NCBI GenBank assembly: GCA_022520065.1
Contig: GCA_022520065.1_3942.1
Origin: a phage
DNA length: 64,000 nt
Direction: 5' to 3' (one strand)
In this document: in pieces, positions 69-5,216 of the stretch
How positions within the stretch are numbered: the first letter of the stretch is position 1
Layout: every line of letters starts with the position of its first letter
Made by a program: the position numbers and the translations under genes
The notes under the pieces: model-generated
Told to the model about the DNA's origin: nothing
The model's database searches: none
Seen by the model: only the letters and a program-made list of their open reading frames with translations

Positions 69-145
69 CTCTGTTTAGCTCAGCTTGGTAGAGCGTTCCG
101 TTTGGGGCGGTAAGGCCGGAGGTTCAAGTCCTCCAACAGAGACCA
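69..145 (+). tRNA. tRNA-Pro (anticodon TGG)
   Basis: Hand-folded cloverleaf: acceptor ctctgtt/aacagag, T-arm ggagg-ttcaagt-cctcc, anticodon loop tttgggg, CCA encoded; one mismatch in anticodon stem. Confidence 0.6.
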
Positions 146-152
146 AATTAAT

Positions 153-230
153 GTTCCAGTAGACAAAATGGTAAAGTCACCACTCTTTCAAAGTGGATAT
201 CTGAGGGTTCAAATCCCTTCTGGAACGCCA
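153..230 (+). tRNA. tRNA-Glu (anticodon TTC)
   Basis: Acceptor gttccag/ctggaac, anticodon arm ccact-ctttcaa-agtgg, T-loop ttcaaat, CCA encoded. Confidence 0.6.
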
Positions 231-236
231 GTTTTG

Positions 237-310
237 ACAGAAGACCAATTACAGCAAACTTAATCTTATTCATCTGAAGGTAAATCGGACAAAGAAGAGA
301 TTTGGTCTGG
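237..310 (+). repeat. Structured repeat module A (CAGAAGACC-N-TACAGCAA ... GGTCTGG)
   Basis: Conserved 5' box cagaagaccaattacagcaa and 3' box ttggtctgg; agaccaa pairs with ttggtct. Confidence 0.55.
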
Positions 311-321
311 TCATTAAGAAT

Positions 322-398
322 TGCGGGTATAGAGAAAGGGCGTCTCACATGTCTCATTAGCATGGTATCGGCAGGTTCGACTCCTGCACCCGCCTCCA
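322..398 (+). tRNA. tRNA with CAT anticodon (Met/fMet/Ile2-type)
   Basis: T-arm gcagg-ttcgact-cctgc, anticodon arm catgt-ctcatta-gcatg, U1:C72-type mismatch at acceptor end; identity among CAT isoacceptors not resolvable by eye. Confidence 0.5.
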
Positions 399-404
399 AA
401 TTTA

Positions 405-464
405 CAGAAGACCGTTTACAGCAACAAAATACTTTTTGCGGATAAAAGAAAAAACACGGTCTGG
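405..464 (+). repeat. Structured repeat module B
   Basis: cagaagaccgtttacagcaa ... acggtctgg; stem agaccgt/acggtct covaries relative to modules A and C. Confidence 0.55.
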
Positions 465-475
465 CAATGTATTAA

Positions 476-552
476 GGTTAGGAAGCACATAAGGTATGTG
501 CGGTCGCCTGTTAAGCGAATGGCACAGGGTTCGAATCCCTGACTAACCGCCA
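476..552 (+). tRNA. tRNA-Asn (anticodon GTT)
   Basis: T-arm caggg-ttcgaat-ccctg, acceptor ggttagg/actaacc (one mismatch), anticodon loop ctgttaa. Confidence 0.55.
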
Positions 553-561
553 AATTTAAAT

Positions 562-649
562 GTGTCGTTATCCCGTAGATGGTAGCGGTGGGGACTGTAA
601 ATCCCTTGTCATTGAGACTCGGTAGGTTCGACTCCTACACGGCACACCA
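562..649 (+). tRNA. tRNA-Tyr (anticodon GTA), long variable arm
   Basis: 88 nt; acceptor gtgtcgt/acggcac, anticodon arm gggga-ctgtaaa-tccct, long variable arm, T-arm gtagg-ttcgact-cctac. Confidence 0.6.
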
Positions 650-654
650 ATAAA

Positions 655-732
655 GGTTATGTAGTTTAATTTGGTTAAAATACTCCCCTGTCACGGGAGA
701 TGATGAGGGTTCAAATCCCTTCGTAACCGCCA
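655..732 (+). tRNA. tRNA-Asp (anticodon GTC)
   Basis: Perfect anticodon arm ctccc-ctgtcac-gggag, T-loop ttcaaat, acceptor ggttatg/cgtaacc. Confidence 0.65.
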
Positions 733-760
733 ATTTTGAGAGGGCTATTTAGCCCCTCCC

Positions 761-790
761 TTAAAGGGTTCTTACGAGTATCCTTTAAAG
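761..790 (+). repeat. Hairpin-box family member (CCTTAAAGG stem, TTCTTRCGAG loop)
   Basis: ccttaaagg-gttcttacgagta-tcctttaaagg; related copies near 1613-1640 and 4108-4133. Confidence 0.45.
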
Positions 791-793
791 GAG

Positions 794-869
794 CAGAAGA
801 CCAAATACAGCAAGAACGTATGATATTTTCAAGCCAATTTAATTTTGAAAAATTTAAAACTTGGTCTGG
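794..869 (+). repeat. Structured repeat module C
   Basis: cagaagaccaaatacagcaa ... ttggtctgg. Confidence 0.55.
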
Positions 870-882
870 CTCAACAAATTTA

Positions 883-3041: not shown

Positions 3042-3059
3042 GATAAGCAAGAGGAATTT

Positions 3060-3302
3060 ATGCAAACATTAATCGTCGTTGAACATGAAAATTCCAATAG
3101 CATTGAGTTTGTAAGGGTTCCCACTATAGATACCCACATTTTCTTAAAAGTCGGCTGGGAATGTGACCCAATAAGAGTAGAAAAATTTATTGGTCATTGC
3201 TTTGGTGGAAGACAACTTAAAAGTGTTAATTTTGAGACAATGTTACCAGAAAGCTCAGAAACAAATAATAATGCTTACCTCCTTACGAGGGTTAGACAAT
3301 GA
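3060..3302 (+). CDS. hypothetical protein (80 aa)
   Basis: ORF with GAGG RBS 6 nt upstream; immediately after tRNA-Arg. Confidence 0.3.
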   Translation: MQTLIVVEHENSNSIEFVRVPTIDTHIFLKVGWECDPIRVEKFIGHCFGGRQLKSVNFETMLPESSETNNNAYLLTRVRQ

Positions 3303-3856
3303 GATACTTAAAATATGCTTCATGGATTTTCTTAGCTTTGTTAGAGCCATTTGCAGCAATCTTAGCAGTTATCTTAGCACCTTTTGTAGTTCCATTCTAC
3401 AGTGAGAAGAAAGGACACTTACCTTTCGGGTTCAGATGGATGGAGACATATGACAACCCAATTGATGGTGATGAAGGTCACGTTAAAAGATGGGCTAATA
3501 TTAGGTGGATTGGTAAACTAGGTGTCTACATGCAAAGAGTCGGATGGCTCTGGAGAAACAAAGCTTATAACTTCTCTTACCATGTATTAGGAAGAGATGT
3601 AAAAGATGTTACTAAGTGGAAAGGTAATATCAACGTAAGTTCTTACCCCGAAGATAATCAGACAGGTTATCTCCTAATGTGGAACAGTAATGCTTGGGGA
3701 TTATTCGCTTTTATCCCATCAATTAAAATCTTTGGTAAACAATTTTACTGGAGAATTTATATTGGATGGAAACTAAAAAGTGTTGTCCCAGAAGAAAGAG
3801 CATTCTCAAGGGAAAGAGTTATGTTGGCATTCTTTATTCATCCACTGAGAAAGTAA
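3299..3856 (+). CDS. hypothetical membrane protein (185 aa) embedded in tRNA array
   Basis: ATG with GAGG RBS; hydrophobic N-terminus FLALLEPFAAILAVILAPFVVPF. Confidence 0.55.
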   Translation: MRYLKYASWIFLALLEPFAAILAVILAPFVVPFYSEKKGHLPFGFRWMETYDNPIDGDEGHVKRWANIRWIGKLGVYMQRVGWLWRNKAYNFSYHVLGRDVKDVTKWKGNINVSSYPEDNQTGYLLMWNSNAWGLFAFIPSIKIFGKQFYWRIYIGWKLKSVVPEERAFSRERVMLAFFIHPLRK

Positions 3857-3864
3857 AGATTTAA

Positions 3865-3941
3865 AGGGGATTAGTTTACAAGGTTAAAACCTCGGTCTTT
3901 GAAATCGAAGAAGTTGGTTCAATTCCAACATCCCCCGCCAA
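3865..3941 (+). tRNA. tRNA-Gln (anticodon TTG)
   Basis: Acceptor aggggat/atccccc (1:72 mismatch), anticodon arm tcggt-ctttgaa-atcga, T-arm gttgg-ttcaatt-ccaac. Confidence 0.55.
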
Positions 3942-3942
3942 T

Positions 3943-4021
3943 GCTCCATTACTCCAATTGGCAGAGAGGCCAGACTTAAAATCTGTGTTATGTATCGGTT
4001 CGAATCCGATATGGAGTACCA
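3943..4021 (+). tRNA. tRNA with TAA anticodon (Leu-type) but short variable arm
   Basis: Acceptor gctccat/atggagt, D-loop caattggcaga (paralog of the 2883 tRNA), anticodon loop cttaaaa, T-arm atcgg-ttcgaat-ccgat, A73. Confidence 0.45.
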
Positions 4022-4025
4022 AATT

Positions 4026-4101
4026 TAGCGGTATAGCATAACTGGCAATGCAGCAGCCTCTGAAGCTGTCCTATTAAGGTTCAAATCCTTATGCCGCTGC
4101 C
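4026..4101 (+). tRNA. tRNA-Gln (anticodon CTG)
   Basis: Acceptor agcggta/tgccgct, anticodon arm gcagc-ctctgaa-gctgt, T-arm taagg-ttcaaat-cctta. Confidence 0.55.
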
Positions 4102-4133
4102 ACTTCTAAGGATTCTTGCGAGAGTCCTTAAAT

Positions 4134-4209
4134 GTGGCCTTATCATAAATGGTAATGACCCATGCTGTGAACATGGTCTATACGGGTTCAAATCCCGTAG
4201 GTCACCCCA
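4134..4209 (+). tRNA. tRNA-His (anticodon GTG)
   Basis: Acceptor gtggcct/aggtcac, perfect anticodon arm ccatg-ctgtgaa-catgg, T-loop ttcaaat. Confidence 0.6.
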
Positions 4210-4215
4210 ATTTAT

Positions 4216-4291
4216 AGTCCAAGTAGCTTATATGGTTAAAGCGCGTGTCTGAAAAACATGAGAAGAGGGTTCAAATCCCACTGGACTACCA
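4216..4291 (+). tRNA. tRNA-Phe (anticodon GAA)
   Basis: Acceptor agtccaa/ctggact, anticodon arm cgtgt-ctgaaaa-acatg, T-loop ttcaaat. Confidence 0.55.
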
Positions 4292-4307
4292 ATTTCAAAG
4301 GTGCTTA

Positions 4308-5042
4308 ATGAAAGAGATGACAGAACAAGGTAAGGAGATTTTTAATCTCTTAAAAACCGGTAAAGGGTTCTCTAACCCACTGATTACTGGTGCAGCAGTT
4401 CTCGGTGGAACCGTAGCTGCTTCTACATCACTTGTAAGCTCTATTAGTTCTGTAACAGACCCTACAATGAAGGAGAAACTTGTTGCTGCTGGACTTACAA
4501 CAGTCCTTCTAAACAGCTTTACAACAAGCCTTACAAGCACTACAGCAACTACTAAAACTCTGACAGACTACGGTCAAAAGTCTATTGATGAGTTTTCATC
4601 ACGTATGCAGGTAGCAAAGGGGTATTCCAATGTTATGGGTGCAGCAGGAGAACAAGTTGGTTGTACACCATTCAGTGGTATCATGGGTGTTGCTACAGAA
4701 TATGGTCAAAAAGCTATTGATATGATTAACAGTACACTAGAGAGTGTTAACAATGTATTAAGTGACTTACAAGACGCTATTGACAAGGGTCTTGATACTG
4801 TTTCTGATTTAGCTAACCAAGCTGTCAGTAAGATTAATGAAGGTATCTCAAAGATTACAGCTTATGCAGATGAAGTTGTGCAGATGATTGAAGAAGAAGC
4901 TGCCCTTATTGCAGAGTACCTTAAAACGAATATCAATGGGTTCTTAGCAGGTATCTTACCAGACTGGTTTGATGATGCCTGTAAAACTGGTGTAATTGAC
5001 ACTATTGCAACACCAGAAATGAAGAACGCATTACAGAAATAA
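4308..5042 (+). CDS. hypothetical protein (244 aa) embedded in tRNA array
   Basis: Start moved to ATG 4308 (track ORF from 4245 overlaps tRNA-Phe); Ser/Thr-rich N-terminal half. Confidence 0.5.
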   Translation: MKEMTEQGKEIFNLLKTGKGFSNPLITGAAVLGGTVAASTSLVSSISSVTDPTMKEKLVAAGLTTVLLNSFTTSLTSTTATTKTLTDYGQKSIDEFSSRMQVAKGYSNVMGAAGEQVGCTPFSGIMGVATEYGQKAIDMINSTLESVNNVLSDLQDAIDKGLDTVSDLANQAVSKINEGISKITAYADEVVQMIEEEAALIAEYLKTNINGFLAGILPDWFDDACKTGVIDTIATPEMKNALQK

Positions 5043-5043
5043 T

Positions 5044-5136
5044 GGAAGATTAACCCTAAAAGGTAAGGGAGCAGTTTGCTAAACTGCCAGTAGCTGAGAA
5101 ATCGGTGTACCAGTTCAAGTCTGGTATCTTCCTCCA
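5044..5136 (+). tRNA. tRNA-Ser (anticodon GCT), long variable arm
   Basis: Perfect acceptor ggaagat/atcttcc, perfect anticodon arm gcagt-ttgctaa-actgc, long variable arm, T-arm accag-ttcaagt-ctggt. Confidence 0.65.
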
Positions 5137-5140
5137 ATTT

Positions 5141-5216
5141 GAATCCGTGACAGAAATGGCTATGTGCCTGTCTGCAAAACAGGTTTATAAGGGTTCGAGT
5201 CCCTTCGGATTCTCCA
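5141..5216 (+). tRNA. tRNA-Cys (anticodon GCA)
   Basis: Perfect acceptor gaatccg/cggattc, perfect anticodon arm cctgt-ctgcaaa-acagg, T-arm aaggg-ttcgagt-ccctt. Confidence 0.65.

Follow-up and report, generated by a model that had tools for sequence, protein, structure and literature searches.

Bacterial tRNA-Leu carries, in its textbook form, a long extra (variable) arm. A variable loop of 5 nt is known, however, from a bacterial-type tRNA-Leu of Streptomyces coelicolor: its type I tRNA-Leu(CAA), for which U8:A14 is important, is found alongside class II tRNA-Leu in a cytoplasm that has one LeuRS (PMC6614811). This Streptomyces tRNA is not leucylated by the E. coli LeuRS, which according to Fan et al. 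(2019) "only charges type II" (PMC6614811). Arm-less or minimal forms of E. coli tRNA-Leu have also been engineered (Asahara 1993/1998; Tocchini-Valentini 2000; Larkin 2002; via PMC9976931), and these are still LeuRS substrates as long as A73, A15-U48, G18G19, A20a and the D/T-loop contacts remain. The identity set published for E. coli LeuRS consists of the same four elements and D/T-loop tertiary pairs, and the variable arm and anticodon are reportedly dispensable for this enzyme (review PMC9976931). Animal mitochondrial tRNA-Leu(UUR) is likewise class I and takes its identity from A73 and A14, but it is organellar, structurally relaxed and served by its own mitochondrial LeuRS. As to tRNA arrays, the virulent coliphages T4 and T5 carry multi-tRNA clusters with small ORFs interspersed, and in T4 the small stable RNAs rnaC and rnaD are interspersed as well.

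The window analysed here, a stretch of 64,000 nucleotides of phage DNA, is assigned by its sequence to Felixounavirus (Felix O1-type), with 96.9% identity to phage KhF1. Its array resembles the T4 and T5 clusters, but holds 26 genes in comparison to 8 in T4, and it includes three class I tRNA-Leu isoacceptors, with the anticodons TAG, CAA and TAA (Leu-TAG, Leu-CAA and Leu-TAA below). The tRNA-Leu of T4, in contrast, is of class II with 87 nt, while T5-like phages carry a class I tRNA-Leu(TAG) of 77 nt that is 83% to 85% identical to the Leu-TAG of the window. Unlike the Streptomyces gene, the phage Leu genes are encoded by a virus, as members of an array of 26, and none was found in genomes of the host species. 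They contain the same nucleotides as are needed by the engineered arm-less E. coli tRNA-Leu, which are laboratory constructs, whereas the phage tRNAs with their 5- to 7-nt loops are natural and evolutionarily maintained. In comparison to mitochondrial tRNA-Leu(UUR), their T and D loops are canonical, and the LeuRS of the bacterial host would be needed.

Composition of the array

ARAGORN called 26 tRNA genes between positions 69 and 5216, all on the plus strand (Table 1), and the same 26 tRNAs are annotated in the GenBank record of KhF1, so that the array was already known. The anticodons represent 19 amino acids, Trp being the sole absentee, and the claim of at least 18 specificities made in a sequence-only reading of this DNA therefore holds, as do its paralog pairs for Lys (TTT/CTT), Gln (TTG/CTG), Arg (TCT/ACG) and Ser (TGA/GCT). 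Its coordinates agreed with the ARAGORN calls, but its count of about 27 genes was too high, and two CAT anticodons, rather than the "two or three" proposed, were present. The 27th gene was probably a tRNA-Trp-like element (1864-1946) which ARAGORN did not call and whose only Rfam match was tRNA-Sec. This element has a CCA anticodon at 1904-1906, A1-U72, G73 and an encoded CCA end, contains about 8 surplus nucleotides between acceptor and D stems, and is 71% identical to the 3' part of tRNA-Arg(TCT) (family D15). Among the called tRNAs, only tRNA-Ser(TGA) is without an encoded CCA.

Four Y-RNA-like spacer modules are also located within the array, adjoining a Ro60-like gene. The fourth includes a tRNA-like domain with a permuted, YrlA-like topology (T arm, closed acceptor hairpin, D arm), a weak RF00005 match at 894-956, and compensatory changes in the acceptor hairpin in SUSP2.

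Table 1. Features of the tRNA array and its surroundings
Position	Strand	Feature	Basis or remark
13..42	+	Sigma-70-like promoter before array	TTGACA-18-TAAAGT + TG; consensus match only
69..145	+	tRNA-Pro(TGG)	ARAGORN, Rfam
153..230	+	tRNA-Glu(TTC)	ARAGORN, Rfam
236..315	+	Non-tRNA spacer module 1	Bulged closing helix, TTACAGCAA motif
322..398	+	tRNA with CAT anticodon, Met type, U1.C72 mismatch	ARAGORN; below Rfam tRNA threshold
403..469	+	Non-tRNA spacer module 2	
476..552	+	tRNA-Asn(GTT)	ARAGORN, Rfam
562..649	+	tRNA-Tyr(GTA), class II, 15-nt variable arm retained	ARAGORN
655..732	+	tRNA-Asp(GTC)	ARAGORN, Rfam
792..874	+	Non-tRNA spacer module 3	
881..1019	+	Non-tRNA spacer module 4	With tRNA-like domain
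1016..1159	+	Long structured element	Closed by 22-nt inverted repeats, z = -5.5
1164..1239	+	tRNA-Lys(TTT)	ARAGORN, Rfam
1244..1320	+	tRNA with CAT anticodon	ARAGORN, Rfam; tRNA-Ile CAU in KhF1 annotation
1322..1397	+	tRNA-Ile(GAT)	ARAGORN, Rfam
1413..1441	+	Internal sigma-70-like promoter	TTGACA-17-TATAGT, 11/12; consensus match
1645..1721	+	tRNA-Arg(TCT)	ARAGORN, Rfam
1864..1946	+	tRNA-Trp-like element	Read from sequence; Rfam tRNA-Sec, 23 bits
1960..2049	+	tRNA-Ser(TGA), class II, 20-nt variable arm	ARAGORN
2213..2302	+	Long hairpin directly 5' of Leu-TAG	z = -5.5
2304..2381	+	Class I tRNA-Leu(TAG), anticodon 2339-2341, variable loop of 5 nt, G1.U72	ARAGORN, Rfam
2389..2464	+	tRNA-Lys(CTT)	ARAGORN, Rfam
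2471..2546	+	tRNA-Ala(TGC)	ARAGORN, Rfam
2553..2627	+	tRNA-Gly(TCC)	ARAGORN, Rfam
2634..2710	+	tRNA-Thr(TGT)	ARAGORN, Rfam
2807..2881	+	tRNA-Val(TAC)	ARAGORN, Rfam
2883..2960	+	Class I tRNA-Leu(CAA), anticodon 2917-2919, variable loop of 6 nt	ARAGORN, Rfam
2966..3041	+	tRNA-Arg(ACG)	ARAGORN, Rfam
3060..3302	+	80-aa ORF	Without family match
3299..3856	+	185-aa ORF	Pfam DUF7338
3865..3940	+	tRNA-Gln(TTG)	ARAGORN, Rfam
3943..4021	+	Class I tRNA-Leu(TAA), anticodon 3977-3979, variable loop of 7 nt, G1.U72	ARAGORN, Rfam
4027..4102	+	tRNA-Gln(CTG)	ARAGORN, Rfam
4134..4209	+	tRNA-His(GTG)	ARAGORN, Rfam
4216..4291	+	tRNA-Phe(GAA)	ARAGORN, Rfam
4308..5042	+	244-aa ORF	Pfam DUF7217
5044..5136	+	tRNA-Ser(GCT), class II, 21-nt variable arm	ARAGORN, Rfam
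5141..5216	+	tRNA-Cys(GCA)	ARAGORN, Rfam

Structure of the tRNA-Leu genes

The sequence-only reading had placed three Leu anticodons, by hand-folding, on scaffolds with a short variable arm and A73, and the ARAGORN structures gave the same anticodons, no long arm, and A73 in all three genes. Including the encoded CCA, Leu-TAG and Leu-CAA are 78 nt and Leu-TAA is 79 nt long, and their variable loops are 4 to 5, 5 to 6 and 7 nt, respectively, in the ARAGORN structure strings, in comparison to 15 to 21 nt for the Tyr and two Ser tRNAs of the phage and 12 to 15 nt for E. coli tRNA-Leu. T loops are intact and acceptor stems have 7 bp throughout, and Leu-CAA and Leu-TAA have a D stem of 3 bp with a CAATTGGCAGA loop. 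The D arm of Leu-TAG is irregular: the canonical register allows two Watson-Crick pairs only, the helix drawn by ARAGORN is shifted (GGU/ACC) and closes a loop of 9 nt, and there is one extra nucleotide ahead of A14. In addition, the anticodon stem of Leu-TAG has a U.U mismatch, and G36 is followed by A37, which makes m1G37 impossible. The Rfam RF00005 scores of the three genes were 40.0, 43.6 and 47.5 bits, Leu-TAG being the lowest; since all exceed the gathering score of 29 bits, none is scored as a pseudogene. Called as tRNAs by two independent detectors, the three genes thus appear to be neither misfolds nor pseudogenes, and the original tRNA-Leu observation is confirmed as real.

Identity nucleotides and covariation

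Non-canonical aminoacylation determinants had been suggested for these tRNAs, but the results showed that the canonical E. coli LeuRS identity set is kept in all three, namely A73, U8:A14, the A15:U48 Levitt pair (U8 and U48 being present in every gene), G18G19 and A20a, with G18G19 and A20a set in the tRNA-Leu-specific layout of a 3-bp D stem and an 11-nt loop. The D-loop pattern N13-AAUUGG-N-A-R-A is the same as in E. coli leuQPV, leuU, leuW, leuX and leuZ. In overall pairwise identity, the three tRNAs are no closer to E. coli tRNA-Leu than to other tRNAs, so that descent from class II is argued from the D-arm architecture alone. Among viral class I Leu tRNAs (163 unique, 155 parsed), part of which were picked with a pattern fixing AATTGG and A20a, A73 was found in 154 of 155 and U48 in 153 of 155, and the 3-bp D stem with 11-nt loop in 120 of 155, in comparison to 116 of 152 class II Leu tRNAs.

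The stems are maintained by compensatory substitution. The Leu-TAG acceptor stem reads GGGAGAT/GTCTCCT in the window and GGGTGGT/GCCACCT in Arno162, and its anticodon stem ACCATC/GTTGGT in the window, ATCTCG/CGAGAT in SUSP2 and CGCTTC/GTAGCG in Arno162. In a set of 133 non-identical class I Leu tRNAs from viruses, every one of the 20 stem pairs was 94% to 100% canonical, in structures which, being fitted by ARAGORN, are biased towards pairing; the shuffled control gave 41% to 69% at 18 of the 20. Three to six pair types occurred at 19 of the 20 stem pairs, the innermost T-stem pair being an invariant G-C.

Distribution and codon use

The arm-less tRNA-Leu had been treated as peculiar to this DNA, whereas the type is widespread in phages and Actinomycetota. 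Felixounavirus, Suspvirus, Mooglevirus, T5-like Tequintavirus, a Seunavirus and the Erwinia and Pectobacterium phage relatives all keep class I tRNA-Leu, which rV5-like phages carry as well. It was found in 36 of the 120 sampled viral contigs carrying this kind of Leu tRNA, and phage tRNA clusters in general commonly include it. The genome scan further showed that the D arms of actinobacterial chromosomal class I tRNA-Leu and of phage genes such as the Moogle Leu-TAG are near-identical (UAGCCCAAUUGGCAGAGGC).

In 39 ORFs of the window, the Leu codons are used in the proportions TTA 27%, CTT 27%, TTG 14%, CTA 11%, CTC 6% and CTG 15%. The three Leu genes are the only Leu tRNAs of the phage, which encodes no tRNA-Leu(CAG), and their anticodons suit the Leu codons it prefers; the codon compensation proposed earlier fits this usage.

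Discussion

We consider it probable (about 0.8) that the three Leu genes encode normal leucine acceptors which belong to a natural class I lineage and provide for UUR/CUN decoding. The earlier interpretation is, as a whole, partly supported: its structural part holds, its non-canonical aminoacylation determinants are not supported, and its proposals of codon compensation and of resistance to tRNA-cleaving defences are not refuted. Among the points against the leucine-acceptor reading are the irregularities of Leu-TAG described above and the failure of the E. coli LeuRS on Streptomyces type I tRNA-Leu(CAA) (PMC6614811). The Streptomyces tRNA, however, has C48 rather than U48; the A15:U48 element required by the E. 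coli LeuRS is thus absent there and kept in the phage tRNAs, and C48 may account for that failure.

The loss of the arm could possibly also serve to evade defences aimed at class II tRNAs, which would add to leucine decoding rather than replace it: effectors would recognise class II tRNAs by the long arm, an arm-less tRNA-Leu would stay usable while host tRNA-Leu is inactivated, and Ser and Tyr tRNAs would be unable to drop the arm because their synthetases need it. Phage tRNA arrays have been shown to restore infection in the face of defences that target tRNAs, examples being T5 tRNA-Lys with PARIS (PMC11464382) and anticodon-loop variants (eLife PMC10264068), and type II tRNAs are cleaved by human Schlafen 11, bacterial Schlafens being antiphage tRNases. 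Class I tRNA-Leu is moreover found preferentially in viral loci rich in tRNAs (median 11 per locus, in comparison to 4 in loci with class II tRNA-Leu only), and none turned up in 5,426 E. coli genomes. We nevertheless regard such a role as unlikely, since no defence is known to act on the tRNA-Leu of E. coli or Salmonella via the arm, phages such as T4 keep class II tRNA-Leu, one Seunavirus carries both types, and many Actinomycetota have class I tRNA-Leu as a single-copy gene on the chromosome, so that the form exists without a phage-defence context.

It is much less probable that the Leu genes are decaying or non-translational, i.e., pseudogenes, processing signals or decoys. Their Rfam scores are among the lowest of the class I tRNAs in the array, most of which score 53 to 65 bits, Leu-TAG is irregular in D arm and anticodon stem, and degenerate tRNA-like pieces do occur in the array (1864-1946 and 881-1019), but the intact T loops, acceptor stems, A73 and CCA, the compensatory changes across genera with covariation in the family, and the match of the phage's only Leu tRNAs to its preferred codons argue for function. 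Least probable of all is charging with another amino acid, by which the phage would recode UUR/CUN: a class I scaffold is unusual for a bacterial tRNA-Leu, and anticodon-independent switches of Leu-anticodon tRNAs exist in mitochondria (yeast mt-tRNA-Thr(UAG), Ashbya tRNA-Ala(UAG); PMC7609411), but here the full Leu identity set is present, position 3-70 is G-C, U-A and U-A with no G3:U70 (Ala), there is no long arm (Ser) or G-1 (His), the anticodon loops have the normal 7 nt, and Leu codon use is unremarkable for an AT-rich phage.

As ordinary leucine acceptors, the Leu tRNAs would be transcribed within the array transcript from the sigma-70-like promoters, released by host RNase P and 3' processing, and charged with leucine by the host LeuRS, which would recognise A73 and the elbow and core (U8:A14, A15:U48, G18G19, A20a, the 3-bp D stem and the 11-nt loop) and use neither a long variable arm nor the anticodon. 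The retention of long arms by the Ser and Tyr tRNAs of the array is expected if LeuRS alone tolerates arm loss. In translation, anticodons UAA and CAA would read UUA/UUG and UAG would read CUN, Leu codons which are favoured by this 39% G+C phage and would be poorly served by the host. The class I tRNA-Leu to which these genes would belong is a natural lineage that has been little noticed so far.

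The tRNA array and its relatives

ARAGORN predicted 26 tRNA genes in the window, all on the plus strand within 69-5216, and called no tRNA in the remainder of the 64 kb; the anticodons span 19 amino acids, with Trp as the only one absent. The sequence-only reading had estimated at least 18 specificities, which agrees with this number, and about 27 genes, one more than were called; the additional one probably corresponds to the Trp-like element listed in the table. All of the paralog pairs it had named (Lys TTT/CTT, Gln TTG/CTG, Arg TCT/ACG and Ser TGA/GCT) were recovered, but only two CAT genes were called by ARAGORN and the suggested third one was absent. 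The Rfam tRNA gathering score was reached by 24 of the 26 genes, with the long-armed Tyr and the first CAT tRNA below it, and the CCA end was encoded in all genes except tRNA-Ser(TGA), that is in 25 of 26. The 3' end of this tRNA-Ser(TGA) reads ...GCC TAA, so that the host CCA-adding enzyme would be needed.

Bases 1-5400 of the window were matched by 352 phage records, in 234 of them over 80% or more of the query. Enterobacteria phage KhF1 was closest (96.9% identity), and many Felixounavirus, Salmonella, Escherichia and Shigella phages came next. The identical set and order of 26 tRNAs, three tRNA-Leu among them, is annotated in the GenBank record of KhF1, and the array itself is therefore a known and annotated feature of Felix O1-like myoviruses. 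The three ORFs embedded in the array were all kept in relatives. Two sigma-70-like promoters could drive the array, and two long hairpins located directly 5' of tRNA genes may act as processing signals or represent small RNAs.

Features within and around the tRNA array (positions in the window)
Feature	Coordinates	Size or structure	Remarks
Sigma-70-like promoter (candidate)	13-42
Module 1	236-315		plus strand, gap between tRNA genes
Module 2	403-469		plus strand, gap between tRNA genes
Module 3	792-874		plus strand, gap between tRNA genes
Module 4	881-1019		plus strand, gap between tRNA genes
Long hairpin	1016-1159	closing arms 22 nt, fold z -5.5	directly 5' of tRNA-Lys(TTT)
Sigma-70-like promoter (candidate)	1413-1441
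Trp-like element	1864-1946
tRNA-Ser(TGA)	1960-2049		no encoded CCA
Long hairpin	2213-2302	closing arms 26 nt, fold z -5.46	directly 5' of tRNA-Leu(TAG)
Leu-TAG	2304-2381	78 nt including CCA	variable region TGTTT (5 nt)
Leu-CAA	2883-2960	78 nt including CCA	variable region ACTAGT (6 nt)
ORF	3060-3302	80 aa	no family match; inside array
ORF	3299-3856	185 aa	DUF7338, hydrophobic N-terminus; inside array
Leu-TAA	3943-4021	79 nt including CCA	variable region GTTATGT (7 nt)
ORF	4308-5042	244 aa	DUF7217; inside array

The acceptor stem of the Trp-like element starts with A1-U72 and is followed by G73 and an encoded CCA; the anticodon loop reads CUCCAAA, a T arm is present, and about 8 surplus nt separate the acceptor stem from the D stem. 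It was not called by ARAGORN, and its only Rfam match was to tRNA-Sec at 23 bits. It may represent a tRNA-Trp that is degenerate or unconventional, and Trp is the single amino acid for which the array has no called gene. The 3' two-thirds of the element is 71% identical to the adjoining tRNA-Arg(TCT).

Structure of the three leucine tRNAs

The three genes with Leu anticodons (Leu-TAG, Leu-CAA and Leu-TAA) scored 40.0, 43.6 and 47.5 bits against RF00005, respectively, versus a gathering score of 29, and ARAGORN folded each of them with a 7-bp acceptor stem, a 5-bp anticodon stem with a 7-nt loop, and a 5-bp T stem with a GTTCRAnnC loop. Their variable regions of 5 to 7 nt form no helix, compared with 15 to 21 nt in the Tyr and Ser tRNAs of the same phage and 12 to 15 nt in the five tRNA-Leu isoacceptors of E. 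coli K-12 (leuQPV, leuU, leuW, leuX and leuZ). The long variable arm of class II, borne by all host tRNA-Leu, is absent, and the genes correspond to type I tRNA-Leu, defined by a Leu anticodon, a loop of about 4-5 nt and no extra stem, with two of the three loops exceeding the canonical 4-5 nt by 1-2 nt. ARAGORN and Rfam thus agreed with the sequence-only reading that these anticodons sit on short-variable-arm scaffolds with A73; that reading had allowed for misfolding, yet the tools assigned the same anticodons, found no long arm and called no pseudogene.

The cloverleaves of Leu-CAA and Leu-TAA were clean. In Leu-TAG, the D stem in standard register pairs only A10-U25 and G12-C23, leaving C11.C24 and G13.A22 unpaired, and the anticodon stem has a U.U mismatch at 30-40; alternatively, a shifted GGU/ACC D helix can form around a 9-nt loop, and this helix is kept in the phages SUSP2 and Arno162. 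The CUN-reading Leu-TAG (UAG) also has the anticodon loop CUUAGAA (site 2339-2343), in which G36 is followed by A37 versus G37 in host leuW, which precludes m1G37, a modification that CUN-reading tRNAs typically carry. The same A37 after G36 was found in the Leu-TAG orthologs of four comparison loci (L002, L004, L005 and L012) and is common to many viral class I Leu-NAG. When anticodon loops were compared by eye, position 32 was C in the phage Leu tRNAs versus U in host tRNA-Leu; neither this difference nor A37 of Leu-TAG could be linked to the specificity of a nuclease.

Both stems of Leu-TAG compared among phages differed by compensatory changes. The acceptor stem is GGGAGAT/GTCTCCT in the window and GGGTGGT/GCCACCT in Pectobacterium phage Arno162, and the anticodon stem is ACCATC/GTTGGT in the window, ATCTCG/CGAGAT in SUSP2 and CGCTTC/GTAGCG in Arno162. 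Covariation was further evaluated on 133 non-identical class I Leu tRNAs with a 3-bp D stem, from viral contigs and related phages, with folds fitted by ARAGORN and a sample partly picked by sequence pattern. Canonical pairing was 94% to 100% at all 20 stem pairs, and 3 to 6 pair types occurred at 19 of them, the innermost T-stem pair being an invariant G-C, while in the shuffled control canonical pairing dropped to 41% to 69% at 18 of the 20 pairs. The three Leu genes are real, selected tRNAs, and the alternative that they are pseudogenes has a low probability.

Leucine identity features and charging

Leucine identity in E. coli comprises A73, A15-U48, G18G19, A20a and D/T-loop tertiary pairs, while neither the long arm nor the anticodon is reported to be needed, a minimal arm-less tRNA-Leu being still active (Giegé and Eriani, PMC9976931). 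All three phage genes carry A73, each ending in ...A-CCA, together with U8, A14, A15 and a U as the final variable-loop nucleotide (position 48), so that the A15:U48 Levitt pair can form; we infer from the nucleotides present that U8:A14 can form as well. The D arms of Leu-CAA and Leu-TAA consist of U8-A9, a 3-bp stem and C13-A14-A15-U16-U17-G18-G19-C20-A20a-G21-A22 (CAATTGGCAGA versus GAATTGGTAGA in E. coli), a layout which equals that of E. coli tRNA-Leu (G13-AAUUGG-U-A-G-A), follows the G18G19/A20a pattern of a 3-bp D stem with an 11-nt loop N13-AAUUGG-N-A-R-A, and is not matched by other tRNAs of the array. Relative to the E. coli layout, the D arm of Leu-TAG has one surplus nucleotide ahead of A14 and a shifted stem register. 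Leu-TAA has G1.U72, as do host leuZ and leuU. Taken together with the published identity set, Leu-CAA and Leu-TAA therefore keep all of the reported necessities and are without only the reported dispensables, and the same may hold for Leu-TAG. The possibility that they are charged with another amino acid, and so serve in recoding, is accordingly small.

The Ser and Tyr tRNAs of the array retain their long arms, and SerRS and bacterial TyrRS use this arm. A type I tRNA-Leu(CAA) of Streptomyces coelicolor, with the variable loop A44-C45-A46-G47-C48, is charged by its own LeuRS, and E. coli LeuRS failed to charge it (Fan et al., PMC6614811). The Streptomyces tRNA has C48, whereas the Leu tRNAs of the window have U48, and we infer from this sequence difference that C48 may explain the failure of the E. 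coli enzyme. Ancestry was also sought from pairwise identity with the variable region removed, comparing the three Leu genes with the E. coli tRNA-Leu isoacceptors and the rest of the array; the values of 0.59 to 0.72 did not separate Leu from non-Leu, and pairwise identity thus provides no evidence on ancestry.

Distribution of class I tRNA-Leu in phages and bacteria

Leu-TAG of the window is 83% to 85% identical to tRNA-Leu of many T5-like phages, and ARAGORN found a 77-nt tRNA-Leu(TAG) in Salmonella phage Spc35. Class I Leu tRNAs number three each in SUSP2, Moogle and Erwinia phage Coenus (CAA, AAG and TAA in the last), and two in Arno162, while Seunavirus GEC_vB_MG carries one class I Leu-TAG (77 nt) and one long-loop Leu-TAA (86 nt). 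The tRNA-Leu of T4 differs from all three genes of the window in being class II, with 87 nt.

A class I pattern, which required an AATTGG D loop, a HAR anticodon and a distance of 15-18 nt up to the T loop, was found in at least 120 contigs of IMG/VR, and among 120 listed matches to a pattern admitting either class, 36 had the class I form. Among these listed matches, the median number of tRNAs per locus was 11 for class I in comparison to 4 for loci with class II tRNA-Leu only, and 25 of the 84 class II-only loci held a single tRNA, which is probably a host or attachment-site gene. Parsing succeeded for 155 of the 163 unique viral class I Leu tRNAs, and among these 155, A73 was carried by 154, U48 by 153 and U8 by all; the variable loop was 4-7 nt in 153 of the 155, in comparison to 9-25 nt, mostly 10-17 nt, in class II.

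In GTDB genomes the class I pattern was found at at least 120 loci. Among the 120 loci listed, 74 had a lone tRNA, most of them tRNA-Leu(UAA) of Actinomycetota, including Nocardia, Mycobacterium, Gordonia, Rhodococcus, Arthrobacter, Bifidobacterium and Rothia, and about 25 lay in dense arrays of 10-34 tRNAs in 8 kb, class I Leu included, in Acidobacteriota, cyanobacteria and others. The D arm of the chromosomal Actinomycetota tRNA-Leu(UAA) is nearly identical to that of the phage copies (UAGCCCAAUUGGCAGAGGC). Enterobacterales were not found among 80 titles of the GTDB matches listed, and blastn of the three Leu genes against 5,426 complete E. coli genomes gave no match.

The bacterial and viral scans therefore establish class I tRNA-Leu as a lineage: certain bacterial phyla have it as a native gene, phages and mobile tRNA arrays commonly carry it, and for the hosts of this phage it is foreign. 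It is familiar from Streptomyces and mitochondria. Its presence in phages, where it is common, seems not to have been pointed out within the searchable literature, in which no mention of an arm-less phage tRNA-Leu was found; older T5 papers in subscription journals fall outside that literature and may hold a prior description.

Y-RNA-like modules and a Ro60-like gene

A bulged closing helix recurs in the four paralogous spacer modules, and its outer 4 bp covary among copies (UGAC/GUCA, UUAC/GUAA and GAGC/GCUC). The modules also have in common an AGA/G internal loop, an inner helix of AGACC.../...GGUCU and a single-stranded UUACAGCAA motif, which occurs 4 times in the window versus 0.11 expected by chance. 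In the MFE fold of module 4, a tRNA-like domain appears in the permuted order T arm, closed acceptor hairpin, U8-G9 and D arm, which is the order in bacterial YrlA Y RNAs, and the domain is held by a terminal helix, as is characteristic of YrlA and Y RNAs. The acceptor hairpin differs in sequence between the window and SUSP2 and pairs in both. The Rfam YrlA model (RF02553) gave no match to 225-1165 at E <= 10, and the YrlA motif GNCGAAN0-1G was not found near the 5' end of module 4, where AGAAGACC..UUACAGCAA is conserved; GGCGAAG occurs in module 4 at the T arm only. Dictyostelium Class I RNA was matched only below its threshold (23.9 and 19.7 bits, with 41.5 required), and the likeness in terminal stem and UUACAGCAA layout is probably coincidental. 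From these features, the modules may be phage Y-RNA-like small RNAs. Non-tRNA RNAs within phage tRNA clusters have a precedent in T4, whose cluster includes two annotated small stable RNAs, rnaC and rnaD (70908-71171, NC_000866; comparison locus L338).

In relatives, a gene outside the window ends about 100 nt upstream of the position corresponding to window position 1 (61-1401 in L001 and 1028-2443 in L013, two related phage loci), and encodes a protein of 446-471 aa which belongs to phrog_850 and carries Pfam DUF2828 and DUF7788. Its AlphaFold model has a mean pLDDT of 90, and the ten best PDB structure matches were all Ro60, Rsr or TROVE (E about 1e-7, TM 0.41 to 0.61), while no PDB chain was matched by sequence, so the Ro60 kinship is visible at fold level only. 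The vWA MIDAS motif DxSxS was invariant in 44 of 44 aligned members of the family. Members of this family are present in 710 phage records, and in mycobacteriophages their annotation reads 'Ro-like RNA binding protein'. Judged by its predicted fold, the upstream protein is Ro60-like, and relatives thus have a gene of the Ro60 type (TROVE and vWA) within about 4 kb of module 4 and on the same strand. YrlA RNAs adjoining Ro60 genes have been described in 254 bacteria and 22 phages (Chen et al., PMC4201824). The modules of the Felix O1-type array thus resemble a divergent YrlA case that escapes Rfam's YrlA model, and by analogy the modules and the Ro60-like protein may form a putative phage Ro/Y-RNA pair.

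Proposed function and loss of the variable arm

The window has a G+C content of 39.3%, and the Leu codons of its 39 long ORFs were TTA 27%, CTT 27%, CTG 15%, TTG 14%, CTA 11% and CTC 6%. In E. coli, CTG makes up about half of the Leu codons and the commonest tRNA-Leu is the CAG isoacceptor. The phage Leu anticodons are UAA, CAA and UAG, with CAG absent, and together with the codon use this fits a supplementation of codons poorly served by the host. In the proposed mechanism, the array would be transcribed from the two sigma-70-like promoters, host LeuRS would charge the three Leu tRNAs, and the charged tRNAs would enter translation. We consider it likely, with a probability of about 0.8, that the three genes are ordinary leucine tRNAs which receive leucine from host LeuRS and serve in translation; the predicted parts of this reading are their expression and charging.

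The simplest account of the arm loss is that it is neutral or economical, because LeuRS tolerates the loss and the lineage exists in bacteria. Alternatively, phage arrays might carry class I tRNA-Leu for escape from arm-recognising host effectors or from host regulation. Phage tRNAs are known to rescue infection under tRNA-targeting systems, and according to a 2026 preprint, class II tRNAs are probably preferred by the Abi toxin AbiEii, as they are by MenT3; however, no known system attacks enterobacterial tRNA-Leu via its arm, and we regard this escape as improbable. A wider version, to which we give an equally small chance, holds that the arm-less Leu tRNAs evade AbiEii/MenT3-type nucleotidyltransferases and Schlafen-type RNases, LeuRS being the only class II synthetase tolerating the loss, and that the Ro60-like protein and the four Y-RNA-like modules would belong to one phage tRNA maintenance or quality-control unit.

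Leucine tRNAs charged by host LeuRS, as we prefer to read these genes, bear on the textbook view that bacterial tRNA-Leu is class II. A 2019 NAR paper likewise treated bacterial tRNA-Leu as class II, with Streptomyces a curiosity and E. coli LeuRS charging type II only (PMC6614811). Well-studied coliphage and Salmonella phage groups (Felix O1-like, T5-like and rV5-like) encode only, or also, arm-less tRNA-Leu. For annotators, this means that short phage tRNA-Leu calls are genuine and not errors. The frequent class I tRNA-Leu in viral arrays constitute a natural test set for the requirements of LeuRS in vivo, and with the viral class I isoacceptors one can ask directly whether class II-specific defence toxins are bypassed.
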